Source: Kiritimatiellia bacterium
GTDB taxonomy: Bacteria; Verrucomicrobiota; Kiritimatiellia; RFP12; JAAYLN01
Direction: 5' to 3'
NCBI GenBank assembly: GCA_017458965.1
Contig: JAFSZJ010000098.1
Coordinates: forward strand, 1 to 41,380
DNA length: 41,380 nt
Every line of letters starts with the position of its first letter. Position 1 is the stretch's first letter. Below, one piece after another: positions 3,219-34,743 of this stretch. Made by a program: the position numbers and the translations under genes. Under the pieces are notes generated by a model. The model ran no database searches and was not told the DNA's origin. It saw only the letters and a program-made list of their open reading frames with translations.

Positions 3219-4173
3219 GGGAGAAAGGTTGGGGAGTCAGGGAGTTGGGGAGTTGTGGAGCGTCCTTCACAATCCTTAGCGTCAGCGTCTGCTCCGCGTC
3301 GGGACCGAGGGCCACGAACTCGAGTTCGATATAGGGTTTTGGGGCGTCCTGCCCCGTCGTGAAGACCATTGCGCGGGATGGAGCTCCGAAAGCGCCTAGG
3401 CATCGTGCTGGAGCGGTCTGCTCTATGACAAGCCACTCGCCTGAACCGTCGGTAAGCGGCGCGGCGAGGGCGTCGCCATCGAAGTCGAGCCTTGCATCCC
3501 TCCATGCGGCGGACATGTCGAGTTCAATCCAGCCACCGCCAAGGCTTCGCGGTTCCGGGAAGCATGGCTTGCCCTTCCGATCAAGCACCATGCGTCCCTC
3601 GCCCCATAGCCGTCCTACCACCTTGGATACGAGAGGTATCTGCGTCACGGACCATACGCGGCGCGGATCGTCAATGACGGCAGAGGTCATTTTCTGACAG
3701 CTCCCAAGCGTTTCGCGCAGGATTAGCCGGTCGTCGCACAGTGTGAACTCGCGCTCAAGCGACACGGTCCAGTCACCGGAAGCATGGTCGGCGCTCCGCA
3801 GCAGGATGTTCGTCGCGTCGGCGCGGACAACCTCGAGCGGCGCGGAGTCGAACCATGCGGGGGGCGGCCAGAACGACACGGCGGACTTGTCCTTGAAGCC
3901 TTTCCAGAGCGACATCGCGCCGACCCATGTCTTTTCGCCGCCGATGTTCACCCAGCGAGGTCTTCCCGCCGCGTCAACGATATTCGTCGTTGCGTCCGGG
4001 TCTCTCCAGAGGGCGTTCGCCCCGCCCGTGCGCCCGAAGCGCATCAACCGCCCTCCGCATGAGGGCATGACCTCCGCGCGGAGCGTCCCGTTATCCAGCA
4101 CGAGCGTTCCGGCGGCAAAGGCGCCGCAACGCATCGCGAGGGTTGCCGCAAGGATTATGACTTCAGGCCTCAT
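3202..4173 (-). CDS. Secreted DUF4380/galactose-mutarotase-like protein
   Basis: Signal-peptide-like N-terminus from ATG 4173, then LDNGTLRAEVMPSCGGRLMRF, NIGGEKTW, WPPP and YIELE motifs. Confidence 0.65.
   Translation of the reverse strand: MRPEVIILAATLAMRCGAFAAGTLVLDNGTLRAEVMPSCGGRLMRFGRTGGANALWRDPDATTNIVDAAGRPRWVNIGGEKTWVGAMSLWKGFKDKSAVSFWPPPAWFDSAPLEVVRADATNILLRSADHASGDWTVSLEREFTLCDDRLILRETLGSCQKMTSAVIDDPRRVWSVTQIPLVSKVVGRLWGEGRMVLDRKGKPCFPEPRSLGGGWIELDMSAAWRDARLDFDGDALAAPLTDGSGEWLVIEQTAPARCLGAFGAPSRAMVFTTGQDAPKPYIELEFVALGPDAEQTLTLRIVKDAPQLPNSLTPQPFSHDNQN
3228..3259. repeat. Degenerate octamer array (GTTGGGGA x4), C-rich on sense strand
   Basis: Units GTTGGGGA GTCAGGGA GTTGGGGA GTTGTGGA; translated as PQLPNSLTPQP at the end of the DUF4380-like ORF, just upstream of the GH29-like ATG. 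Confidence 0.65.
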
Positions 4174-6373
4174 TAGCCGCCACGAGTTCCAGGATTGCGG
4201 AGTCGTAGTCGCGATCGCCAAGGAGGATCGGAAGTCCGACCTTCATCAGCGCCTCGCCTGTCGGAAGCAGGCCATCCGCCATCTCGGCGGTGAAGTCGGT
4301 GCATTTGCCTAGGAGCGGCGAATGCGCCCTGCGCCAGCTCTCGGTGTTGAGTTCGCGGATGCGGTAGCGCTTTGCGGGGTCAAGGCCCTGAAGCATAAGC
4401 GCAGGCGGGTAGTTCTTGCGGGCATCCCGGGAAAGACCGTAGATGCATACAATGGCGCGGTCCTTGGACTCGTCCACGAACATCAGCGCCGCATAGTCGC
4501 GCTCGAAGGGCGAGACGAGCCTGAAAAGATCCCCCTGCTGCACGACCGGGCGTATGCGGTGGTACTCCTTCACGGCGTTCTTCGCGAACTCGAGTTCGCG
4601 CGGAGTCATGTGCTTGGGCTGCATCTCGAAGCCGAATCGCCCGGAGAAGGCGACATCCACGCGGTACTTGAACGGCACGACGCGACCAGTAACGGTCACA
4701 TGGCTGGCCATCGCCTGCGCCGGATAGAACATGCTCGCGCCCCACTGCATCTTCACGCGGTCTCGAGGGTCGGTGTTGTCGGAAGTCCAGAACTCGTCGC
4801 AGTAGCGGAGCGAACCGTACTCCATGTGCCCGCCACCGGACGAGCAAGCCTGGATATCGACACCGGGGTACTTGGCCCGCTGCTTCGCAAGGACTTCATA
4901 GTAGCCCATCGCATAGTCGAAGTAGAGGTTGCCCTGATGCGCCGCGTCGAGGTATGTGGACCCGACGTTGTCGATGTTGGCGTTGGCATCCCACTTGACA
5001 TAGGCGAGGTCCTTGACGGAGCCGTAGGCGGCATCAAGCTGCCGCCAGATCTCGTCGCGGACGGCCGGGTTCGTGAAGTCGAGCACGACCTGCGATCCTC
5101 CGCGCCCAAGCCGCATTGGTCGACCATTCTCCTGAAGCGCCCATTCCGGGTGCGCCGCGAGGAGGTCGCATGCCTTCCAGTTCGCCATCTCCGGCTCGAC
5201 CCAGAACCCGAATTTAAGCCCGCGCCTCTTCGCCTCCTCGGCTAGGCCTGCGAGACCATGCGGGAGCTTGGCCTCGTTCACGCACCAATCGCCAAGGCCG
5301 CGCAGATCGTCGTCACGGGCGTTGGCGCCACGCGCGAACCATCCGTCGTCCAGCACGAACATCTCCACGCCGAGTTCCTTCGCGCCATCCATGATCTCGT
5401 GGAGCAACGGCTCGTCGAAGGACATCCCGGTGCCCTCCCAGTTGTTGAGCAGAGTCGGACGCTCCTTAGCGCCGGCTGGCATCCAGTGGCGGCGCGCCCA
5501 TCGGTGGAAGTTGCGCGACACCTGCCCCTTGCCCTTGTCGCTGAAGGTAAGCGCCGCGACTGGCAGAATGATCGACTTGCCGGGATCGAGAACATAGTCG
5601 CCAGCGACATTAGCTGGTCCTCCGGTTAGCTCAAGGAGATCGACCTCGCTCCGACGGAAGGACATCTCCCACGCGCCCGTCCAGCAAAGCGCTCCGCCGA
5701 TCACGCGGCCCTCGGTTTCGGAGGAGGGACCGCCAACGGAAAGCATGAAGGTCGGATTGTCCAGCCAGGCGTCGCGCACACCAGATCGGGAGTCGAGGAT
5801 GATGCGCCGTCCGCGCTCTATGGGCGTCTCCACGACCTCCCCCTCGGAGCACCACTCGCCCGTCAGGCTCAAAAGCCGCCAGTCGTCCGCCATCAGCGGG
5901 AAGACGAACGAGAATGAGGACATCCTGGAGATGCGCACCGCGCCAGCCTCGCCATTCGCCAGCTCGACCCATGTCTCGATGACATCCGCGTCAGGGCGCG
6001 GGCTGAAGGTCTGGATAACGCGGAAATCGTGCGCCGCGTCGCGCCAGCGAATGACGACGGCACCCTCGTCGCCATTCTCGATCTTCTCCACGATGAGGTC
6101 GAGAGTCACCGTGCCGTCGTCATGCGTGACCTTGAGCCCGCCAAAGCGGTTGAGCCCGCCGCCGGACTCGCCGAAGACCGAATAGGCCAACGGCCTTTCC
6201 ACGCCGAGTGAGCTGGGCAGCCTGTCGTGCACGGTCAGCGCCAATGCACATTCGGCGTCGGCGACCTTTACGCCGTAATGGCGTAGGTAGAGACGCTCGC
6301 CCACGCCGGAGGCTTTGCGCTCGAAAAGTAGCGCGGTGTTGGCGGTCTCGATACTCAAGAGTGAAGTGTTCAT
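4163..6373 (-). CDS. Alpha-galactosidase, GH36
   Basis: Motifs LLNNWEG, FVLDDGWF, GLGDW, FGFWVEPEM, YVKWDAN, CSSGGG and WTSDNTD. Start taken at ATG 6373 (MNTSLLSIET). Confidence 0.95.
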   Translation of the reverse strand: MNTSLLSIETANTALLFERKASGVGERLYLRHYGVKVADAECALALTVHDRLPSSLGVERPLAYSVFGESGGGLNRFGGLKVTHDDGTVTLDLIVEKIENGDEGAVVIRWRDAAHDFRVIQTFSPRPDADVIETWVELANGEAGAVRISRMSSFSFVFPLMADDWRLLSLTGEWCSEGEVVETPIERGRRIILDSRSGVRDAWLDNPTFMLSVGGPSSETEGRVIGGALCWTGAWEMSFRRSEVDLLELTGGPANVAGDYVLDPGKSIILPVAALTFSDKGKGQVSRNFHRWARRHWMPAGAKERPTLLNNWEGTGMSFDEPLLHEIMDGAKELGVEMFVLDDGWFARGANARDDDLRGLGDWCVNEAKLPHGLAGLAEEAKRRGLKFGFWVEPEMANWKACDLLAAHPEWALQENGRPMRLGRGGSQVVLDFTNPAVRDEIWRQLDAAYGSVKDLAYVKWDANANIDNVGSTYLDAAHQGNLYFDYAMGYYEVLAKQRAKYPGVDIQACSSGGGHMEYGSLRYCDEFWTSDNTDPRDRVKMQWGASMFYPAQAMASHVTVTGRVVPFKYRVDVAFSGRFGFEMQPKHMTPRELEFAKNAVKEYHRIRPVVQQGDLFRLVSPFERDYAALMFVDESKDRAIVCIYGLSRDARKNYPPALMLQGLDPAKRYRIRELNTESWRRAHSPLLGKCTDFTAEMADGLLPTGEALMKVGLPILLGDRDYDSAILELVAANEA

Positions 6374-6440: not shown

Positions 6441-6552
6441 TATCCATCATCCACAATCTATTATCTGTTATCTATTATCTGCTATCTGTTATCTATTATC
6501 TGCTATCTGTTATCTGTTATCTATTATCTACTATCTGCTATCTGCTATCTGC
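6441..6552. repeat. Heptamer tandem array TATCT(G/A)(C/T), ~16 units
   Basis: TATCTGT/TATCTAT/TATCTGC units in exact 7-nt register; contains the stop codon of the FAD oxidoreductase. Confidence 0.95.
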
Positions 6553-9327
6553 CATCCCGGCCTTGCGGAGCCGTTCCGCAACGAAGGCGCGCTGCCAAGG
6601 ACGGCGGGCGCGTTTAGGGCCGACACCGTCTGGCAAGGCGTCCGTGAGGTCGCATGTCCCGTCGAGCATACGCAGAATCGCACCGCGCTCCGAAGCGCAC
6701 TTCCCCGCGAGGCGGATGGCAATATCTCCAGCGCTCCAAAGCGCCGTCATGCGGACCATGGAGCCGCGCGTCTGGTCGCATGCGATGGATGACAGCGTCC
6801 GCAGCGAAGCGCGGCCTCCGCAGAACCCCAGCGCCCAGACCGCCGCAAGGGAATGCGGCGCCTTGCCGAATGGATTGGGGTGCGTACCGTCCTCGCGATC
6901 CGCCGCCATGGCGGCAAGAACGGGTTCGACGCGCTTGTCGCCGAGCGCACCAAGGAGCAATGCAGCATCACCGGACTTTTCGCTCCCCTGCCCCACGAGC
7001 GGCCAGACGCTGTCCGCGATGCGTTTCAACCCCATGCGGTATAGAAGCCAAAGCGCAAGACCGCCATGCTCCCCGCCAATAGCGGAGACAAGGCGGCTAA
7101 CGCCATCATCCTTGGATGCGGACGCGACGAGGTCGACGCCTTCGTAAGCCCTTGGAGTCACTTCGCCGAAAATGCCAGGACCTGGCGTCCATTGCTCAAG
7201 CGCCCCGCTTGCGCGAAGCGCTTTCTGGAGCCGCTCAAGCGGCACATCTCCCGAGGCGACGCCAAGTCGGGTCGCGAGGGCAGCGGCGATGCCGGCCGCC
7301 TCCCCGATGCGCTGTATGTCGCGTTGCATCCTGAATGCGTAGGTCGTCTCCGATGTGCATCCTGCGGCCCTGCAGGCCACAAAGAGGTTGTCAATGCCCT
7401 CTGCCAGGATGGCGCGATACGGGATTTCGCAGCCAGTCGGCATTTGCCAGAGGCCGCAGCACCAGTTGTAGAAGGCGAGGTCGCGTCCCTCGGCGAAGAA
7501 GTCGCATGCGTGTCCATCGACATGGCCCGCCGTAAAGCCGATAACATCGTCGAAGGCGCGGTGTTCGACGAGATCGTCCAGCGTCAGCCGGTAGCGCGTG
7601 GCGGCAAGTGGCCCTTGCCGGATGCCTATCGCCGGCGCCATGCCGGTCGTGCGGTTGAAGGTGTTGCTCGTGCGGACGCACGAGTCCGCAACGAGTTTCC
7701 TTGTGGCCTCTATGCGGGCGGTGGTCATGTCGAGGCTGTCGGACGGATCGACATGACCGCAGTCACGGTTGTCGATGAAGAGCGTCAATTCCTGATTGGC
7801 GCCAAAACCGAAGCAACCCCATATCTGTGAGAAGGGGTTCATGGATCCGTCGCCCTCGCGACCGACTGAAAGCGGAACGCCGGCGGAAGCGGAGAGGAAT
7901 GCATCGCCTGTCGAGTCGATCCAGTTTTTGGCGGCTATGCGGACAATGCCTTTTGGCGTCGCAGCGAGTATCGATACGATGCGTCCGTCCTTGACCTCGG
8001 CCGACGACGGGATAGTACGCGACTCCAGAAGCGTCGAGACGCCGGCCTTGCCCAGAGCCATCCATGTCGCAACGAGCCGCGCAAGTCCATGATAGCCCCG
8101 TCCAACCTGTTGCTGCGTGGCGAAGAGCGGTTGGAGGCGTTTGACCTCGGCGTCTAATTCGTCCTGCATTCCACCATGGCAGCCGTGGTAATACGAAGGG
8201 ATGCCCCCGATCGAAGGGATGCCGCCGACCATCGAGCGCGCTTCAAGCGCAAGCGTTCCAGCTCCGCCAGCCGATGCCGCAACCGCAGCGAAGAGTCCGC
8301 CCGTGCCGAGACCGGCGACGCACACATCCGTCTCGATCGTGAAAAGAGGCTTTGGGTCGAGAGGACGCAGGCGCGGCGGAAGCGTGCAACGCGGGGCGTT
8401 CTCCAGCGCGGCAAAAGCGCCTTCTCCCAGGGCGTAGCGATCGCCAAGCGTCGCGGACGGCGCGGAGGAAAGAGAAGGAACGGCGATGGCGAGGTTTGCG
8501 CAGGGCGATTTCGCCGAAGCGCGACGCCGTGGATAAAGCGGATATGCGCGATAGCTCCAGTGGGAGACAAAAGCGTCTGCGCAAGTCTTGCCAAGTCGCC
8601 GCCTCAAAGCCTTGAAGACCGGCTCGACGATCCCTGCCTCGCCACCATGCATGGACCGTGGGCACTCTATGCGCAGGATCTTCTCAGACGACCAGCCGGA
8701 GGACTCGAACACTACCTTTACACCGCGCATCCCTCCATCAATCGTGAAAGGGCATTCGATTGGCCAGCGCGTCCGCTGCAGGAAGAAACGCAGGACATGA
8801 CGCGATGGCTCAACGGGTTCCTCGGCAAGGCCACAGAGGCGCGCCAGAAGACCATGCTCCGTCGCGTCGATCCAATTCGCGGCCGAGATCGCGGCAAGAC
8901 GGGAGCGTAGGGCGAATGTCACGCTACGCAAAAGGCCATTGCCCGCGATGTCGGCCGCGACTGGGGTGGCGAAGTACAGGCGCGTGACGGCTGTGGCGGC
9001 AAGAAGCTCGTTAGCAACCCACTCGGCGCTGCCGGGGTCGATCCAATCCTCCGCTATACCGGTAGCGCACCCGATCGCGTACATGAATGTGCGCATGGAG
9101 TCCGGGGTCTTGCCGGCCTCCGGACAACGGGCATGCGCGCTTTCCCAAAGCAGATCGCATTCTGGATCGATAAGGATCGTCTTCAGGCCTGCCGCCGTTG
9201 CGGCCGTAGCCGCCGCGTATCCGGCATATCCGGCTCCGACAACGGCGACATCCCAGCGCGTTGCCGAAAGAGCTTCAAGGGTTTTGCATTGATCGACCTT
9301 GGCGAGATTGGTTGTTCTGCTTTTCAT
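6538..9327 (-). CDS. FAD-dependent oxidoreductase (FAD_oxidored-like), two FAD-binding modules plus C-terminal HEAT-like repeats
   Basis: DVAVVGAGYAG...IDATEHG, then a second DVCVAGLGTGG...IDSTGDA, EIPYRAIL and IGEAAGIAAALA. C-terminal AALLLGALGDKR and AAVWALG are HEAT-like. Confidence 0.85.
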   Translation of the reverse strand: MKSRTTNLAKVDQCKTLEALSATRWDVAVVGAGYAGYAAATAATAAGLKTILIDPECDLLWESAHARCPEAGKTPDSMRTFMYAIGCATGIAEDWIDPGSAEWVANELLAATAVTRLYFATPVAADIAGNGLLRSVTFALRSRLAAISAANWIDATEHGLLARLCGLAEEPVEPSRHVLRFFLQRTRWPIECPFTIDGGMRGVKVVFESSGWSSEKILRIECPRSMHGGEAGIVEPVFKALRRRLGKTCADAFVSHWSYRAYPLYPRRRASAKSPCANLAIAVPSLSSAPSATLGDRYALGEGAFAALENAPRCTLPPRLRPLDPKPLFTIETDVCVAGLGTGGLFAAVAASAGGAGTLALEARSMVGGIPSIGGIPSYYHGCHGGMQDELDAEVKRLQPLFATQQQVGRGYHGLARLVATWMALGKAGVSTLLESRTIPSSAEVKDGRIVSILAATPKGIVRIAAKNWIDSTGDAFLSASAGVPLSVGREGDGSMNPFSQIWGCFGFGANQELTLFIDNRDCGHVDPSDSLDMTTARIEATRKLVADSCVRTSNTFNRTTGMAPAIGIRQGPLAATRYRLTLDDLVEHRAFDDVIGFTAGHVDGHACDFFAEGRDLAFYNWCCGLWQMPTGCEIPYRAILAEGIDNLFVACRAAGCTSETTYAFRMQRDIQRIGEAAGIAAALATRLGVASGDVPLERLQKALRASGALEQWTPGPGIFGEVTPRAYEGVDLVASASKDDGVSRLVSAIGGEHGGLALWLLYRMGLKRIADSVWPLVGQGSEKSGDAALLLGALGDKRVEPVLAAMAADREDGTHPNPFGKAPHSLAAVWALGFCGGRASLRTLSSIACDQTRGSMVRMTALWSAGDIAIRLAGKCASERGAILRMLDGTCDLTDALPDGVGPKRARRPWQRAFVAERLRKAGMADSR

Positions 9328-12352: not shown

Positions 12353-13909
12353 ATGGCTGGAAGGAACACAAAAGGTGCGCGAAGGTCCGGACTGGGCAGG
12401 CTGGCAACGGTCTCGCTCGTCCTTCTCTGCGCACTCTACGCCGCCAGCCTCGTCTCCGAACTCATCTGTAACTCCAAGCCGCTGATCGTCCGAGCCAACG
12501 GACATGTGGCAATGCCGTTCCTGGCGCATGTCACCGAAGACGACTTGTTCGGAAACGGCGTCCCGAGGGAACCCGACTGGTCTGAAGTCGCCGCAACCGG
12601 ATCCGTCCACGCCATCTTCGCCCCATTACGCCATGGCCCATCGGACATCATCGACGCCGCATCGCTGGCAGGCTTCCGCCGCATACGCGCTACCATACGA
12701 CCAAAGGTCGCCTCTGGCAGGATCGATGTCCGTCCCGACATGACGGTTTCACGTTGTGAGGGTGTCGAAGCCTTCTTCCAGCGCGTTCCTGACGCAGACG
12801 AACGGATTGACGCCCTTTTCGATCATCCTGTTGGTCTTGCGGATGCCATCTCATCGCGTTTCTCCGACAGTCCGTCTGCTGCAGCGACGTTCAGGATCGG
12901 GACGCCTGGAGTGCCCGATGCTGAGATATCCCTGGCCGAATACGAGCCTAGAGGCGCCACGCCGCGTACCGTGCGGCTGCGACTCCGCTCAGGCGAAGGC
13001 GCAGCACGGACGGCCTCGATAGTCTTCGATGTCAAGGACGGAGTCCCCTACCCCATCCGCTCCTCCCGCTCCGCATTCGAACACCTTGACGAGGAGACGC
13101 GCAACACCATCCTCGCCGCCCTCTCCTCCACTCCTCCACTTTCCACTCTCCACTCTCCACTTTCCACTCCCAACTCCTCCACTCTCGAACTTTCATACGA
13201 AAGCGTGACTTGGCCATTCCGTCCGGTCCCAGGTCACCCGATGGGGATAGACGCCGCCGGACGCGATGTCTTTGCAAGGCTTCTGCACGGCACACGGACG
13301 GCGCTGACCTTCGGTATGCTCCTTGTCGCATGGGCCGTGCTGATAGGCGTGATAGCCGGCGCGATGCAAGGCTACTTCGGGGGATGGGTCGATCTCGCCG
13401 GACAGCGTTTCATCGAGATCTGGAGCGCCTTGCCGTTCCTCTATGTGATGATCCTCGTCGGTTCGGTGCTGGGGCGCAGCTTCCTGCTGCTCCTCCTTTG
13501 CTATGGCCTCTTCAACTGGATCGGCGTCTCCTACTACGCCCGGGCCGAGTTCCTTCGGCTTCGCGGACGGCCATTCGTCGATGCCGCCAGATGCCAAGGG
13601 CTTTCCACATGGCGGATCATAATGCGCCACATACTGCCGAACGCTCTGACACCTGTCATCACGCTTCTACCGTTCAACCTCGTCGGGGCGATAGCATCGA
13701 TTTCGGCGCTCGATTTCCTTGGCTTCGGTCTTCCGCCGCTGACGCCAAGCTGGGGCGAGCTGCTCCAGCAGGCGCAGCAGGACACCTCAGCCTGGTGGCT
13801 GATCCTCTACCCGTCGCTATTCCTCTTCATGACGATGCTGTTGTCGGTCTTCGTGGGCGAAGGACTCCGTGATGCCCTCGACCCGCGCCCTGACAGCCGC
13901 TATGAATGA
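12353..13909 (+). CDS. Peptide ABC transporter permease (YejE/OppC-like) with large extracytoplasmic insertion
   Basis: HPMGIDAAGRDVFARLLHG, EAA-like FVDAARCQG, RHILPNAL, PSWGELL and GEGLRDALDPR. Confidence 0.9.
   Translation: MAGRNTKGARRSGLGRLATVSLVLLCALYAASLVSELICNSKPLIVRANGHVAMPFLAHVTEDDLFGNGVPREPDWSEVAATGSVHAIFAPLRHGPSDIIDAASLAGFRRIRATIRPKVASGRIDVRPDMTVSRCEGVEAFFQRVPDADERIDALFDHPVGLADAISSRFSDSPSAAATFRIGTPGVPDAEISLAEYEPRGATPRTVRLRLRSGEGAARTASIVFDVKDGVPYPIRSSRSAFEHLDEETRNTILAALSSTPPLSTLHSPLSTPNSSTLELSYESVTWPFRPVPGHPMGIDAAGRDVFARLLHGTRTALTFGMLLVAWAVLIGVIAGAMQGYFGGWVDLAGQRFIEIWSALPFLYVMILVGSVLGRSFLLLLLCYGLFNWIGVSYYARAEFLRLRGRPFVDAARCQGLSTWRIIMRHILPNALTPVITLLPFNLVGAIASISALDFLGFGLPPLTPSWGELLQQAQQDTSAWWLILYPSLFLFMTMLLSVFVGEGLRDALDPRPDSRYE
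13121..13190. repeat. Heptamer array (CTCTCCA/CTTTCCA) in-frame inside the permease
   Basis: Encodes [22 protein letters not shown]. Confidence 0.85.
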
Positions 13910-13919
13910 GGGATATCCC

Positions 13920-15014
13920 TTAGACGTACCGTGAGCCACCTTCGCCAGAGGCTATCTGCCTGACGAGGCGCTTCAGGTCCTGCGCCTTGGATTTTGGGCA
14001 GACGAGAGTCGCGTACGGCGTCTGGACAACCACCATGTCCTCGCATCCGAGGAGTGCCAGCATGCGACCTTCGGCCGTGTTCACGACGATGCTTTCACGC
14101 GAGTCCATGGCCGCGACCTCACCAAGCGTCACGTTGCCGTCTCCGTCCGCCGGCATGTGCGCGACGATGGATGGCCACGAGCCGACATCGTCCCACCCGA
14201 ACTCGCCTTCGGCCATGATGATGTTCCGGCACTTCTCCATGACTGCGTAGTCGAGCGATATCCGCTCAAGACCCGGATAGATGGCGGCAAGTCTTGCGGC
14301 CAGGTCGTCAGTCGAAGACGCGGAGGAGGCGGATTCGATGAGTGGAAGCAACTGCGGAGCGTGTGCGGCGAAAGCCTTCCCCATCGTCGCGACGCTCCAG
14401 ATGAACATCCCGGCGTTCCAGCGGAAGCGCCCTGACTCTACATACGAGCGTGCAGTTGCCTCGTCCGGCTTCTCAACGAACCTCAGCGCCTTGCGCATGC
14501 TTGTCGAGAGCCCGAAGCCGCAATCCTCAGCGCCTTCGATATAACCGAATCCGGTCGCAGGATAGCTCGGGACAACACCGATGGTGACGATCGCGTCGGC
14601 TCTTGCCGCGACGGTGAACGAATCCGCCAGGATGCGGCGGAAGGCGGCGACATCGGCCATCAGCTGGTCGGCCGTCAGTATGGCGGCCACGCCATCAGGG
14701 TCGCGCGCCTTGACGAGACCCAGCGCGAGCGCGCAAGCCGCTGCTGTGTCACGACGCATCGGCTCCCCGATGATGTTTTCCGGCGGGACGGACGGACACG
14801 CCTCGCGCGATGGGGCGACTAGCGCATCGGCCGTGATGATCAGGATGCGATCCGGATCGACAAGACCGTCAAGCCTGTCAACCGCATGACGGATAAGCGG
14901 CTTGCCTCCGAAGATCGAGACGAACTGCTTGGGACGGCTAGATGTGCTCAATGGCCAGAAGCGTTCGCCGCTTCCCCCGGCCATGATTACTGCGAAATTA
15001 TGTGAAGTGGACAT
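13920..15014 (-). CDS. manC: Mannose-1-phosphate guanylyltransferase (ManC-type, no PMI domain)
   Basis: VIMAGGSGERFWPLS, PKQF, EPMRRDTA, RFVEKPD, WNAGMF, ISLDYAVME and WDDVGSW. Start at ATG 15014; the longer ORF is repeat-derived. Confidence 0.9.
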   Translation of the reverse strand: MSTSHNFAVIMAGGSGERFWPLSTSSRPKQFVSIFGGKPLIRHAVDRLDGLVDPDRILIITADALVAPSREACPSVPPENIIGEPMRRDTAAACALALGLVKARDPDGVAAILTADQLMADVAAFRRILADSFTVAARADAIVTIGVVPSYPATGFGYIEGAEDCGFGLSTSMRKALRFVEKPDEATARSYVESGRFRWNAGMFIWSVATMGKAFAAHAPQLLPLIESASSASSTDDLAARLAAIYPGLERISLDYAVMEKCRNIIMAEGEFGWDDVGSWPSIVAHMPADGDGNVTLGEVAAMDSRESIVVNTAEGRMLALLGCEDMVVVQTPYATLVCPKSKAQDLKRLVRQIASGEGGSRYV

Positions 15015-15115
15015 TGGAAGTTGAAAGATGAAAGATGAGAGATGAAAGATGAGAGTGGAGAGTGGAAAGTGGAGAGTGGAAAATGGAAAGTGTGAAGATG
15101 AGAGTGGAGAGAAGT
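15015..15115. repeat. Heptamer array GA(A/G)AGAT then GA(A/G)AGTG (~14 units)
   Basis: Abuts the manC ATG. The sense strand reads CTCTCCA/CTTTCCA units, then CTCTCAT/CTTTCAT units. Confidence 0.9.
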
Positions 15116-15222
15116 TGACCTTGCAGACTTTCAATACATTCTAGACATTCCTAGACTTTTGGACCTTCTAGACATTCCTAGACCTTCTTAGACTTTCTAG
15201 ACCGTCCTGGACCTTCCTAGAC
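15116..15222. repeat. 9-10 nt periodic array, core (CT)AGAC
   Basis: ctagacattc ctagacttt tggaccttc tagacattc ctagaccttc ttagactttc tagaccgtc ctggaccttc ctagac; contains the phosphoesterase stop. Confidence 0.85.
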
Positions 15223-16317
15223 TAGCGGCATTTCATCATCAGGGGCGAAAAAGCCACCGTCGCTATCGGCGTAGCGTACGCGGACAGCGTCCTTTGAGAG
15301 CGTTATCGCACCTGACACATGGTACTGGTCCCTAACATATGATGAGCAGACAGCTACGCCAGGCTGGAGACCGTAGGAGTCATGCGCCCCACCTGGCGCC
15401 TCGGTGTAGCATTCATGAAGGTGCCCGGAGAGCATAAGCGTGGGCTTCATCCTGCCGACGAGACGGCACCAGCGCTTGTAGCGCTTGATCTCTATCTGGA
15501 ACTGCTTGTCAGGGATGAGGTAGTTGAAGGGCATGTGGCTGACGACAAGCCGCACCGGATATCTTTTGTACGCCTTCCTCGAGACCACCCGACGGATGAA
15601 AGCCTCCTCCTCCTCGCGGAACACCTCGCAGCATACGGTATGGCCGTACTCGTTGCATTCATCCACCTTGTCCTCGCCACAGTCTATGACGATGCCCCAG
15701 ACCGGACCGAGATGGAATGTGAAGTAGCTCTCACCGGCCCGCGTCGTGGGCGTGTAGTCGGCCAGCATGTCGGCGCCCACGCCGCGCAGATCATGGTTAC
15801 CGCGCGAGAACACGCATGGGATACGTCCCTTTGTGATAGGCCCGCTTATGAGGTATATGGCCTTGAACATGTCCACGGACTCGCTGCACTCGGGGACATC
15901 GCCGTTCATGATGAGGAAGTCGAGGTCGTCGCCGAAGAACGAACCGCTCCGCGCCGCCGCCTCGTGGCGGCTGTGGGAGTCGGCAAGGTTCACGAATTTG
16001 TATTCGGCCTTCTCGGCGACGGGTCTGAATTCAAACACCCTCTCCTCGATCCCCCCGCATTCCGAGAAGTATGCCTTGCGCTCGATTATCCTGCGCAGGC
16101 AGACCTTGTAGGAACGCGCCTCATCCAGCGCCACCATAGGTACGCGGGCGATGTGCAAGTACTTCGCGGAACGGAGGATGCCGTTCGAATGATCGAAGTA
16201 GGACTTGCCTCCGACCTCCACCCACATGGTGCATTCCGCATCGACCGGAACGCAAACCAGATACTCGTCCTCCACCGCGTACACGGATGGATATGTCATC
16301 ATCAGGCTGTCTTCCAT
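15217..16317 (-). CDS. Metallophosphoesterase (calcineurin-like/purple acid phosphatase-like)
   Basis: Motifs LADSH, MNGD, RGNHD, VSHMP and SGHLH. Start is ATG 16317 (7 nt after TGCTAGAAT) or ATG 16302. Confidence 0.85.
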   Translation of the reverse strand: MEDSLMMTYPSVYAVEDEYLVCVPVDAECTMWVEVGGKSYFDHSNGILRSAKYLHIARVPMVALDEARSYKVCLRRIIERKAYFSECGGIEERVFEFRPVAEKAEYKFVNLADSHSRHEAAARSGSFFGDDLDFLIMNGDVPECSESVDMFKAIYLISGPITKGRIPCVFSRGNHDLRGVGADMLADYTPTTRAGESYFTFHLGPVWGIVIDCGEDKVDECNEYGHTVCCEVFREEEEAFIRRVVSRKAYKRYPVRLVVSHMPFNYLIPDKQFQIEIKRYKRWCRLVGRMKPTLMLSGHLHECYTEAPGGAHDSYGLQPGVAVCSSYVRDQYHVSGAITLSKDAVRVRYADSDGGFFAPDDEMPLV

Positions 16318-18053
16318 GCGGAGGATTCTAGCACAGCGAAGGCGATAAGCAGGATTGCGCAAGGTATGCCGAGAAGCCAGTCGCCAAACCGTGTGTAGAT
16401 GGTGCGGCGCGGAACAATGGCCAGATCCCCGACGGCAAAGCCGGCGCCGGATCCGTCGCCACCGATCCGGCGGACGATTCTGCCATGGCCATCGATCAAA
16501 GCCGACACGCCACGGTTCGTTGCACGCATCATCGGCCTCCCATTCTCCACGCACCTCAACACGGCCTGCGCGAGATGCTGCTCCCCTTCTGCCGAGCCTG
16601 CGAACCAGGCGTCGTTGGCCAGCAATGCGAGAACATCCGCCCCGTTGCGGACGGAGTCGCGCGCAAGCGACGGGAAGGCGTCCTCGAAGCATATGAGCGA
16701 GCCGATCCTGAACTCGCCCCTGGGCGTGTGGATGGTGCAGACCGCCGCCGCGTCGCCGGGCTCGCAGCTGAAACCGGCAGGCGCAAGCCGCTTGAGGAAC
16801 CGGAGTTTCGATTCCAGCGGAATGAACTCCCCGAATGGGACAAGATGCCTCTTGCGGTAGGTGGCCATGATCCCCTTTGGACCGAAGAGGAACGCGGAAT
16901 TGTAGATCAGGTGCGGGTTCGGGACATCGTCATCCGGCGCGCCTCCATATTTAAGTTCAACACCGCCAGCCAGAAGCGCGGCACCGTCGAGGGCCGAAAC
17001 TGCGCCACGGACGAGGTCCGCGGCATCACGGTCATAGGGAATATATCCAGGGAGGATCGTTTCAGGCCAAACGCAGATGTCTGGCGACGCCATGGCGGCG
17101 AGTTCGGCGTGCGACAAAAGAGTCTCCGAAGTCGTATCCAACGCCTCCTCATCCTTCTCGAAGATGCTTGGCATGTCTGCGCAGACAACGGCCGCCCGCA
17201 AACGGGGGGATTCGATTTCAACGCGGCGCGACTCGCCGATCGCATCCAGTCCACGCATCCAGCAGGCCACAGTCACGCAAAGTGCGATGAATAGCTCAAG
17301 AGAGCGGACAGGCCATTTGAAGATGCGGGGAACGGGGAGGCGGGGAGATGAAAGATGAAAGTGGAAAGTGGAAAGTGGAGAGTGAAAAGTGGGAAGTGGA
17401 GAGTGGGGAGTGGAAAGTGGAGAGTGGAGGGTGGAGAGGAGACGGGAGATAGTTGAGGCGATGGAGGAGTTTATCGCTACGAGAAGTAAGGAGACCGCAC
17501 CGGCGCCAACCCAGGATGCAGGGTGGAGGAATGCGGGATTGCCGTATTGCGTCGCGGCGAGAGGGTTCCATGGGAAGCCGGTGAGAACGACGCCCCGCAG
17601 GTATTCAGATCCCACCCAGAATACTGGTTCGGCAATGAGGACCAGAAGGATGGGGATGATGGTCCAGGGGCGCTTCATGGCAAGCCGCCATGAAGCCGCA
17701 ACCGCGAATGCGAAAAGAGCCTGGAAAAGCGAGAGGAAAAGGGAAAGCGCCACATGGCCGAGGCCGACAAGCGCCACTGGTCCGCCATTGTCTTTGAGGC
17801 TCCATAGCCACGACAGGTCGATCAGCCAGAAGACGCATCCGAAAACGAACCCCAGAAACGCTGCCCTGCGCGGCGGCGCGGCGCGCACCGCAAGCAGCAT
17901 CGGCACGATGGCCACGAACGCCAGATCGCCATGCCCGAATGGCGGGAACGCCATAGCGAGCAAAACTGCCGACAAGACGGATAGGATGACGGACAGCACC
18001 TGGTTTCGCCCTATGCGTTGCGGAGGGCGTCGGCGCGGTCGGTTCGCTCCCAT
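16302..18053 (-). CDS. lnt: Apolipoprotein N-acyltransferase
   Basis: TM N-terminus and GFPWNPL; catalytic triad motifs [15 protein letters not shown] and ICFED; ANDAWF and RATNRG. Confidence 0.95.
16325..16333 (-). promoter_or_regulatory. Putative internal extended -10 (TGCTAGAAT) within lnt 3' end
   Basis: TGCTAGAAT-cctccgc-ATG, in frame with the phosphoesterase. Confidence 0.5.
17345..17437. repeat. Heptamer array (~13 units) in-frame inside lnt
   Basis: Encodes [31 protein letters not shown] between hydrophobic segments. Confidence 0.92.
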
Positions 18054-19189
18054 GGGAAACCGTCGCGGCCGAAATGACCATAAGTGGCCGTCTCGCGGTA
18101 GGACCAGCCCTGCGGCCTCATAAGACCTAGGTCACGCACGAGCATGCCTGGGCGGAAGTCGAATATGCGGCCGGACATGAGAATGTCCGCAAGGCGGTCC
18201 TCGGGGATGGAACCGGTGCCTAATGTCTGCACAGTGACGTTTATGCTCGTTGGTTCGGAGATTCCGATCGCGTAGGAGACCTGTATCTGGCACTTGTCAG
18301 CGAGACCAGCCGCCACGATGTTCTTGGCCGCGTAGCGGGCGTAGTAGGCGGCGGACCTATCGACCTTTGACGGGTCCTTGCCGGAGAACGCACCTCCACC
18401 ATGGGCAGCCATGCCGCCGTAGGTATCGACAATGATCTTGCGTCCGGTGACACCGGCATCGCCGTTCGGACCGCCGATGACGAACTTGCCGGTGGGGTTG
18501 ATGAGAAAGCGCGTGTCATCCGTGACAAGGCCCGTGGACGCCAGTTCCCCCCTGGCCACCTCTTCAAGGTCCTGCCTGATGCGCACGATATCGATGTCTT
18601 CGGTCTGATGGGAAAGGACGACTGTGGTTATTGCCGCCGGACGGCCACCATCGTACCGGATGCTCACCTGCGCCTTGGCATCAGGCCGCAGATACGGAAT
18701 CTCGCCGTTATGCCGGAGGGTGGCGCAGCGCCGCATCAGGCGGTGCGAAAAGACCAGGGCCGCAGGCATCATCTCAGGCGTCTCGTTCGTCGCGTATCCG
18801 AACATCATGCCCTGATCACCTGCCCCCTGTTCCTCCGGGCATCCGCGTTCAACTCCCATGTTGATGTCCGGTGACTGGCCATGCAGTGCGTTGATGTAGC
18901 GGAAGTCGTCGCTGGAGAACTCCTCGCCGGGGCGATCATAGCCTATGTCGCGGACAACACCTCTGGCTATCGCCTCCGTATCCACGCCATCCCACCCGGA
19001 GCAGGTGACCTCGCCTATGTTGACAACGAGATTAGGGCCAACAGCGGTCTCACACGCGACATGCGCATTCGGATCCTTGGCGATGCAGGCGTCGAGAATG
19101 GCGTCCGAAATCTGGTCGGCAACCTTGTCGGGATGGCCCTCGGACACTGATTCAGATGTGAAGATGTAGCGCGATGGGAAAGTGTTCAT
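18011..19189 (-). CDS. metK: S-adenosylmethionine synthetase
   Basis: [30 protein letters not shown] and [16 protein letters not shown]. Confidence 0.98.
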
Positions 19190-19343
19190 GGGAGATGAGA
19201 GATGAGAGATGAAAGATTAGAGATGAGAGAGAAAAGATGAGAGATGAAAGTGGAGAGTGGAAAGTGGAGAGTGGAAAGTGGAAAGTGGAGAATGGAGAGT
19301 GGAGGAGTTGGGAGTGGAGGAGTGGAAAGTGAGGAGTTGAGAG
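19190..19343. repeat. Heptamer/octamer array filling the entire trmH-metK intergenic region (~21 units)
   Basis: 154 nt from TAA to ATG made of GAGAGAT/GAAAGAT, GAAAGTG/GAGAGTG and GAGGAGTG-type units. Confidence 0.95.
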
Positions 19344-20204
19344 TTAGGCGCCGTGGTGTTCAGGAAGTGGTGGAGGTGGCGTGGCTATGCCCGCCTCGAC
19401 ACGCTGTCGGACGGCCTCGAACAGCAGGATGGTCGTGGCAGCGGACACGTTCAGGGAATCCGCTACGCCAAGCATGGGGATGCGCACTCGCATGTCCGCC
19501 TCATTCATCCATTTGTCCGTGAGCCCGAACTGCTCGTTGCCAACCACCAGGGCCACATCACGAGTGAGATCAAGCTGGAAATGGAGTGCGTCGGCATGAG
19601 GTGTTGCGGCAAGGATACCGAAGCCCCTTGCCTTGAGGAAGTCCAGGCATTCGTCCGTGGAGCATTCAACAACGGGCATTGAGAAGATCACGCCTGTCGA
19701 GGCGCGCACGACGTTGGGGTTGTAGATGTCGGTGCACTTGTCGCAGACGATGACCGCAGCGGCGCCGGCGGCGTCCGCAGAACGGAGAATCGTCCCGAGG
19801 TTGCCTGGCTTCTCGATGGTCTCGGCGACAATCAAGAGCGAGCGTGGCGGGAGATCTAGATCATCCAGAGATCGTTTCGGCTGCGGTCCTACGGCAAGAA
19901 GCCCTTCCGGTCTTTCGCGGTAAGCGATCTTCAGGAACACAGGCGCAGAGCAGGATATTATTTCAGCCCCACGTTCCTTGGCTCTTTCGATGAGCGTAGG
20001 CTCGTTGACGCCTTTGAGGAAGAGCTCCTCGCAGAAGAAGAGACGGACCGGCGACCAGCCATGGTCGAGTCCGCGCTTTATCTCGCGGTAGCCCTCCGCG
20101 ATCATCAGCCCTTCGTCATCGCGATGGGAGCGCTGACGCAACCTCACCACATCCTTGATCTTGGGATTGGCGAGACTCGTGATATCCAGGTCGGAGGCGA
20201 TCAT
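19344..20204 (-). CDS. TrmH/SpoU family RNA 2'-O-methyltransferase
   Basis: ITSLANPKIK, EKPGNLGTILRSADA, VGNEQFG and IPMLGVADSLNVS. Confidence 0.93.
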   Translation of the reverse strand: MIASDLDITSLANPKIKDVVRLRQRSHRDDEGLMIAEGYREIKRGLDHGWSPVRLFFCEELFLKGVNEPTLIERAKERGAEIISCSAPVFLKIAYRERPEGLLAVGPQPKRSLDDLDLPPRSLLIVAETIEKPGNLGTILRSADAAGAAAVIVCDKCTDIYNPNVVRASTGVIFSMPVVECSTDECLDFLKARGFGILAATPHADALHFQLDLTRDVALVVGNEQFGLTDKWMNEADMRVRIPMLGVADSLNVSAATTILLFEAVRQRVEAGIATPPPPLPEHHGA

Positions 20205-32500: not shown

Positions 32501-32551
32501 GTTGAGGAGTTGAGAAGTTGAGAAGTTGGGAAGTTGAGGAGTTGAGAGTTG
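32501..32551. repeat. Octamer array GTTGAG(A/G)A (~6 units)
   Basis: GTTGAGGA GTTGAGAA GTTGAGAA GTTGGGAA GTTGAGGA GTTGAGA. Confidence 0.88.
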
Positions 32552-32563
32552 GTGGTTTTCCTA

Positions 32564-32604
32564 CACTAGCCACTAGAACTAGCCACTAGAACTAGTGACT
32601 AGTG
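32564..32604. repeat. 6-7 nt ACTAG array (6 units)
   Basis: cACTAGc cACTAGa ACTAGc cACTAGa ACTAGtg ACTAGtg; contains the stop of the NagB-like gene. Confidence 0.8.
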
Positions 32605-34427: not shown

Positions 34428-34743
34428 GCGGCGTCCCGCCGCGCTCTTGGAACATGTGAAATAAGCCAACTCCAACAACGACGGACAACATTTACATGCG
34501 GACCAACTCGCCCGCATGCGCCGCGCATGTTGGCGCGGCCCAAGCCAAGGTTGTCCCAAGTTGTTCATGTTGTCTTATGCCATTTTGGAGGTGCGGCGTC
34601 CCGCCGCGCACTCGGTGCATGTGTAGTAAGACAACTCCAACAACGACGGACAACATTTACATGCAAACCAACTCGTCCGCATGCGCCGCGCATGTTGGCG
34701 CGGCCCAAGTCCAAGGTTGTCCCAAGTTGTTCATGTTGTCTTA
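34428..34743. repeat. Two tandem ~150-bp copies of a REP-like palindrome plus inverted-repeat (MITE/BIME-like) element
   Basis: Copies at 34428-34577 and 34593-34743. Each starts with GCGGCGTCCCGCCGC and contains TAAG(A/C)CAAC...GTTGTCTTA. Confidence 0.9.

Follow-up and report, generated by a model that had tools for sequence, protein, structure and literature searches.

Common order of two unit types in pyrimidine-rich heptamer arrays of a Kiritimatiellia genome

The subject of this analysis is a set of tandem arrays of pyrimidine-rich 7-base units in a 41,380-nucleotide stretch of Kiritimatiellia DNA (GenBank assembly GCA_017458965.1, contig JAFSZJ010000098.1; referred to here as the window) and in the genome to which it belongs. 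On the C/T-rich strand the units are of type A (CTYTCCA), type B (CTYTCAT) or type C (CTRYTAT; CTRTTAT), and arrays containing both A and B predominantly place A before B. This order is confirmed as a real property of the arrays. For its origin, the explanation that we favor, to which we give about an even chance, is that the arrays are related by copying or gene conversion, with subsequent slippage and selection for orientation and reading frame. The genome is a 1.75-Mb metagenome-assembled genome (MAG; 122 contigs, 63% GC) in which the window forms contig C52; this short-read assembly is 63% complete with 1.2% contamination. Public runs containing the stretch are animal gut metagenomes, sheep and goat among them.

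Four arrays of the A/B family are present in the window, and Tandem Repeats Finder (TRF) gave rows of period 7, 14 or 21 at all four sites. The three arrays of the initial annotation were read on the minus strand, in the sense direction of a run of co-directional genes. The arrays and associated genes are listed below.

19190..19343, minus strand: metK leader array, from the unit parse, with gene limits from open reading frames (ORFs) and Pfam
18011..19189, minus strand: metK (S-adenosylmethionine synthetase), with all three S-AdoMet synthetase domains, downstream of the 19190-19343 leader
17345..17438, minus strand: array in frame within lnt, between the LNT_N and CN_hydrolase domains, translated
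16302..18053, minus strand: lnt (apolipoprotein N-acyltransferase), host of the in-frame array
15015..15118, minus strand: leader array of a manC-like gene, from the unit parse, adjoining the ATG at 15014
13920..15014, minus strand: manC-like nucleotidyltransferase gene (mannose-1-phosphate guanylyltransferase-type), with an NTP_transferase domain from residue 8
13126..13194, plus strand: fourth array, in frame within a yejE-like gene, made of A units and CTCCTCCA/CTCCCAA variants, in a variable loop
12353..13909, plus strand: yejE-like ABC permease gene, a continuous 518-residue ORF that hosts the in-frame array

The array at 19190-19343 occupies the entire 154-base gap between the stop of a SpoU/TrmH-like gene at 19344 (SpoU_methylase was found in this upstream ORF) and the ATG of metK at 19189, the Pfam domain S-AdoMet_synt_N starting at residue 8 of the metK ORF. 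The gap consists of 7-8-base units throughout: degenerate units, an A block, a B block and then CTCCC-ATG. Read from 19343 to 19190, seven exact CTYTCCA units with interspersed variants (CTCCTCCA, CTCCCAA and TTCTCCA) are followed by six exact CTYTCAT units with two variants (CTTTTCT and CTCTAAT), and the final 150 bases contain no G. Within lnt, the sequence from 17438 to 17345 comprises seven exact A units and four one-base variants, two B units and then CTCCCC; the ORF is uninterrupted across the array and encodes 583 residues with both Pfam domains. The true start of lnt may lie at 17954, which matches the first residue of a homologue, P0003. In the manC-like leader, read from 15118 to 15015, A and B are represented by five units each. 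The 3' end, before CTTTCAA CTTCCA-ATG, holds four of the B units, and the fifth is a stray, out of order at unit position 2. The corresponding exact-unit strings are A...A.AAAAABB.B.BBB (metK leader), A.AA.A..AAABB (lnt) and AB.A.AAABBBB (manC-like leader). The minus-strand unit parse thus bears out the initial annotation, in which these three arrays were described as running from A to B and ending in CTCCC or CTTCC. Immediately upstream of the A/B leader of the manC-like gene, a separate array of 9-10-base units (CTAGACCTTC-type) occupies 15125-15222, directly after the stop of a metallophosphoesterase gene, and the 232-base gap before the manC-like gene is almost wholly composed of two unrelated arrays.

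The order of units in other arrays of the genome had been set beforehand as the check on this claim, and here the polarity stood rather than proving random. Genome-wide, 83 clusters with at least three A, B or C units were found, and 14 of them combine A with B units. In 12 of these 14, A comes before B (U > 0.5), nine being strictly ordered (two-sided sign-flip p 0.0012), and the exceptions are C118, which is reversed, and C16, which is tied. In 5000 shuffles of the unit tokens within arrays, the observed value was never reached. When the three discovery arrays were dropped, A preceded B in 9 of the 11 held-out arrays, with one reversed and one tied (p 0.0078). A further step may be added to the succession, given that B precedes CTRYTAT in seven of the nine arrays with both (p 0.07). 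The initial annotation had confined the family to 13.1-19.3 kb of the window, which is wrong: 30 arrays with at least three A/B units are spread over many contigs. The A/B family is itself part of a larger set of 7-8-base arrays, the genome yielding 116 G-poor runs (≥45 bases) and, in TRF, 167 period-7 and 60 period-8 rows with a score of ≥50 that fall into several unit families.

A polarity common to many loci could be produced by directional templated synthesis, in which a polymerase or reverse transcriptase would copy a two-type template, extending many loci by repeats in a single direction, as the initial annotation had suggested. The 3' ends of the G-poor strand do tend to adjoin gene boundaries, and the placement of B before CTRTTAT can be read as successive "layers". 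Such synthesis found no positive support, however. Block sizes vary freely, from 2 to 16 A and from 1 to 8 B units, many arrays are A-only or B-only, and C118 runs in the reverse order. Differences between strains are in-frame changes of length within a block, as slippage gives. No master locus was found among the listed arrays and G-poor runs, all listed two-type loci being ordinary leader or in-gene arrays, although contig ends or the missing part of the genome could hide a template. A search of the genome for RVT_1 (PF00078) returned no match, other polymerase families not having been searched; given that the MAG is 63% complete, this negative does not exclude a reverse transcriptase. Taken together, templated synthesis is considered very improbable.

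Comparison with 60 relatives from the same family and order suggests that this genome-wide family of heptamer arrays is specific to the lineage. The A-B junction pattern has seven matches in the genome and none in the 60 relatives. Triplets of A-type units have 84 matches and CTRTTAT triplets 70, each being present in one of the 60 relatives, for CTRTTAT a member of a different family with the triplets in sense-strand leaders. In that relative (G028, same order, other family; loci L150, L152 and L154), (CTGTTAT)3-4 lies in sense-strand leaders directly upstream of a Shine-Dalgarno-like site and ATG; in the window's own family, CTGTTAT arrays occur in none of 13 genomes, so that the distribution of this heptamer is patchy. 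In 11 family relatives (63-72% MetK identity), metK has an ordinary leader with Shine-Dalgarno-like sites and no array, and a search of metagenome contigs for orthologous metK leaders, performed with a degenerate pattern of the metK N-terminus, gave no match. For the yejE-like protein, the nearest named homologues, at ∼50% identity, carry the label Kiritimatiellae.

Arrays of CTYTCCA are found in many phyla, at no fewer than 121 loci from other genomes. A universal A-then-B rule is ruled out by these, since among the loci listed none of the 143 A arrays has two or more B units within 70 bases; at least one B unit lies near an A array on the 3' side in four cases and on the 5' side in one. In other phyla (L006, L011, L017, L063-L065 and L117; an Acidobacteria MAG and others), (CTCTCCA)n often occurs in mirror-image pairs, (TGGAGAG)n being followed a few tens of bases later by (CTCTCCA)n. 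Such pairs would be consistent with divergent genes, each with a sense-strand array upstream. We also considered that the succession of units, A to B and elsewhere B to CTRTTAT, is the record of a trans-acting process that seeds and extends arrays in one direction, at gene boundaries as well as within genes, from a template or preference that changed over time. This is very improbable; if true, it could explain why identical heptamers are patchily distributed across unrelated phyla.

The placement of the arrays relative to genes is clearly oriented once unit families are separated. Among G-poor runs that face the start of a gene on the same strand, 26 of 47 end within 5 bases of that start, compared with 4 of 44 in the antisense arrangement, and G-poor runs inside genes are in sense orientation in 16 of 16 cases. 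Both leaders in the window (metK and manC-like) terminate at the ATG in the forward orientation. The A and A-B arrays are leader arrays, and the CTRYTAT arrays mostly abut or overlap the stop of an opposite-strand gene. When all TRF arrays were pooled, no clear orientation bias was apparent (102 versus 113 intergenic), because weak coding-region rows and families of opposite habits are mixed in that set. Placement is not exclusively upstream of genes, as had been implied at first: the array at 17345-17438 is translated in frame in lnt. No functional theme was apparent in the Pfam assignments of the downstream genes, which include an amino-acid kinase, acetate-kinase-like, PolB-exo-like and Vut_1 proteins, an acyltransferase, a type II secretion system pseudopilin, an ABC-2 permease, ornithine carbamoyltransferase, an AraC-type regulator, a PfkB kinase and two proteins without a Pfam match.

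The organism uses Shine-Dalgarno sites, a Shine-Dalgarno-like 4-mer being present at -18 to -5 before 451 of 1109 starts compared with 172 of 1109 in a control window. Given that the array leaders are free of G, they cannot carry such a site. Their predicted structure is also negligible, the median minimum free energy (-60 to +15) being -0.05 kcal/mol for 24 G-poor leaders and -18.2 kcal/mol for 1085 other leaders. A promoter role was rejected following a consensus scan, in which no array contained a sigma-70-like site and the single match fell within the lnt coding sequence.

These leader positions are the setting for a second alternative, parallel evolution in situ. Here, leaders would independently turn their start-proximal units into the AT-richer CTYTCAT, which slippage then amplifies; the final AT of CTYTCAT can serve as the AT of ATG, so that B ends up beside the gene. 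Most intergenic A- or AB-type arrays face a same-strand start, the B end of the leaders faces that start, and the final unit is frequently in register with the start codon, as in C17 and C37 (CTTTCAT-G) or in the metK leader and C45 (CTCCCAT-G). The intermediate CTTTCCT is located exactly at the A/B boundary in C16 and C116. By contrast, A-type units adjoin the ATG in C65 and C67, and B blocks also occur at a distance from starts, where they are linked to CTRTTAT arrays in the antisense orientation. The array in lnt likewise runs from A to B away from any start codon, so that selection at a start codon cannot act on the order there, and its B block is longer in another strain. We therefore regard independent origin of the order as unlikely, although positional selection for B beside the ATG may add to the pattern seen in leaders.

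Copies within genes show how arrays change in length. Beyond lnt, Pfam assignments put the array of mutL between DNA_mis_repair and MutL_C and that of lacZ between domain 4 and the small-chain domain; another lies within miaA, and in yejE the host region is a variable loop. The mutL array (C68, 6305-6503, minus strand) spans 199 bases, is poor in G and lies in frame, as a mosaic in which A-type units are mixed with CTCCTCCA/CTCCCAA units. Because the unit is 7 bases long, the encoded peptide has a period of seven residues, and frame is kept by total length only. The lnt homologue P0003 (96-97% identity) has seven additional residues, equivalent to 21 bases, all of which are B-type (HLSSFIF); thus, the A-then-B order is kept and the B block is longer. 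A more distant homologue, P0004 (78-80% identity), has no repeat at the array position. Similarly, a near-identical yejE homologue, P0123, has five additional residues (15 bases) at the array, and homologues at 78-80% identity carry an unrelated variable loop there. The same miaA site on contigs C71 and C80 differs by two 21-base super-units, a step of 42 bases. These comparisons indicate that the arrays are translated, resized in steps that keep the frame, and young; the strain differences in copy number are those of the in-frame copies in lnt and yejE, together with the miaA site on two contigs.

Evidence that the arrays are not independent of one another comes from their internal sequence. 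Arrays at unrelated loci have in common a CTC/CTT alternation particular to this genome: adjacent units switch between the two in 66% of pairs for A and in 58% for B, and pure runs are rare (4 of 25 for A, 0 of 17 for B). At the loci listed from other genomes, by comparison, pure runs make up 109 of the 143 A runs, and alternation is seen in only 16% of adjacent pairs. Shared alternation of this kind, together with recurring complex variants, would be hard to obtain by parallel evolution. A/B arrays are also mildly clustered, with nine pairs within 10 kb compared with 3.3 expected, a value reached in 50 of 5000 random placements. After removal of identical or duplicate copies, six double-substitution variant units, including CTYTTCT, CTTTACT and CTCTTAA, recur at two or three of 27 loci; random throws matched this recurrence in 16 of 20000 cases, on the assumption of uniform mutation, and mutation bias could inflate the recurrences. 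Local copying of one composite element, the other possibility put forward in the initial annotation, fits the alternation, the variant units, the clustering and the order in lnt.

On the favored explanation, common descent by copying or gene conversion, one composite A-B array would be the ancestor, or the repeated converter, of the arrays, whose common A-then-B order would reflect this lack of independence. Recombination or template switching between arrays would carry the composite to new sites, nearby ones being reached more often. Its blocks would then lengthen or shorten by slipped-strand mispairing in steps of 7, 14 or 21 bases. Selection would retain copies that immediately precede a start codon with the G-poor strand as mRNA sense strand, where they would form G-free, unstructured leaders with no Shine-Dalgarno site, as well as copies that keep the reading frame in flexible loops or linkers of proteins; this selection is suggested by the distribution of the arrays. 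The order of units would accordingly be an inherited structure, and neither a signal nor the trace of directional synthesis.

The assumption of uniform mutation in the recurrence test is one of several points that weigh against this explanation. Neither a copying event nor an empty donor or target site was seen at the DNA level, so that the mechanism of spread is one that we infer, and junction sequences differ between loci. The order is mixed or reversed in three arrays (C16, C65 and C118). Gene positions derive from a crude, home-made ORF caller (1353 genes, covering 91% of the genome), and the leader role of the arrays is a predicted one. Contigs often end in arrays, and consequently copy numbers may be wrong and long arrays are missing. 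In four public runs, the Logan contigs are interrupted at each array in the window and yield no independent copy-number data.

Such breaks, together with the fact that C59, C60 and C116 begin or end inside arrays, could be taken to mean that the order or the joins were made by short-read assembly of repeats common to ∼30 loci. This would not explain why, beyond their arrays, lnt and yejE read on into the conserved sequence expected there, nor why P0003, assembled independently from another data set, has A-then-B translated in lnt. Unique junction words fix the order of the blocks even where copy number is uncertain, and an assembly artefact is hardly credible as the source of the order. The public-run contigs were also rejected as a source of copy number or expression, since depth peaks at the arrays reflect shared repeats only, and the pieces of the RNA run that lie on arrays have loose ends on both sides and are likely to derive from other loci.

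Tandem heptamers with many copies per genome are familiar from the short tandemly repeated repetitive (STRR) sequences of filamentous cyanobacteria, which comprise several families and lie mainly between genes. They differ from the arrays described here in their units and in phylum, and we know of no ordered succession of unit types in them. The open-access literature searched yielded no account of bacterial heptamer arrays in which unit types follow one another in a set order. As a general class, heptamer repeats upstream of start codons are published, and the shared unit order adds a new detail to it.

A close counterpart is the TAACTGA class of intergenic direct repeats in marine Beggiatoaceae, some Cyanobacteria and Bacteroidetes (MacGregor 2015, PMC4679880). 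These are tandem 7-base repeats, mostly in forward orientation, located just upstream of starts over the position of the ribosome-binding site; they are also found inside ORFs, have no theme among downstream genes and are phylogenetically patchy. The arrays described here belong to a different repeat family (CTYTCCA/CTYTCAT rather than TAACTGA) and, by comparison, are longer and G-free, each composite array being built of two or three unit types that follow a set order. A unit identical to B, in another register, is found in the transcribed 5'-untranslated region of Haemophilus influenzae hmw1A and hmw2A. There, (ATCTTTC)n controls an adhesin and is phase-variable through changes of length by slippage; at 11 or more copies, it base-pairs with a G-rich stretch located downstream, and the resulting long hairpin is cut by RNase III (PMC12721329). 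The leaders in the present genome differ in having no G-rich partner, almost no predicted structure, B blocks of one to eight units and housekeeping genes downstream. A hairpin of the hmw type is ruled out by the near-zero median folding energy of the 24 leaders and by the metK array directly adjoining its ATG. The tandem repeats of Borg elements are likewise fast-evolving, genome-specific and compositionally strand-biased, and occur both between genes and in ORFs, where they encode repetitive, probably disordered linkers (PMC9879509). The Borg units in ORFs are perfect and divisible by three, whereas the units here are 7 bases long, imperfect and of mixed types. Structural variants at intergenic tandem repeats are described for Planctomycetota MAGs in a further study (PMC9426551).

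Heptamer arrays before starts are widespread in uncultured bacteria, and internal markers, namely unit order, CTC/CTT alternation and rare variants, offer a handle on their origin. These markers relate arrays across loci, including the translated copies in lnt, mutL, lacZ, miaA and yejE. Such relatedness argues for spread by copying over de novo slippage at each site, and the mechanism is testable with long reads. The natural G-free and apparently structure-free leaders of 100-150 bases before essential genes such as metK, in an organism that elsewhere relies on Shine-Dalgarno sites, may also serve as an informative example of Shine-Dalgarno-independent initiation.

The commonest family in the genome is CTRYTAT (ATCTGTT/ATCTATT), with ∼50 loci, including 6456-6551 (plus strand) in the window. 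Its 3' end typically abuts the stop of an opposite-strand gene or overlaps it by 4, 11 or 18 bases. Given this placement, the mRNA would carry (AGAUAAY)n right after the stop codon; on its reverse strand, the unit contains stop codons in every frame. On contig C63, identical B-then-C arrays with identical 5' flanks are present at 6155-6273 (minus strand) and 7776-7894 (plus strand), inverted and ∼1.5 kb apart, resembling inverted repeats that bracket a segment. A dispersed element of ∼250 bases starting GGCTTATCCCCCATAATTTGTCC has four copies (C41, C61, C93 and C94), one directly after an A-only array, one after a B-only array and two without an array.

Other repeats in the window include octamer arrays at 32501-32595 and 3228-3260 (sense CTTCTCAA and TCCCCAAC), both in leaders of minus-strand genes, and a perfect 13-base repeat, ACTAGCCACTAGA, at 32565-32595 after the upstream stop. 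At 34428-34743, a 165-base unit is repeated 1.9 times (92% match) between convergent genes; it is unrelated to the heptamer arrays and contains GC-rich palindromic stretches.

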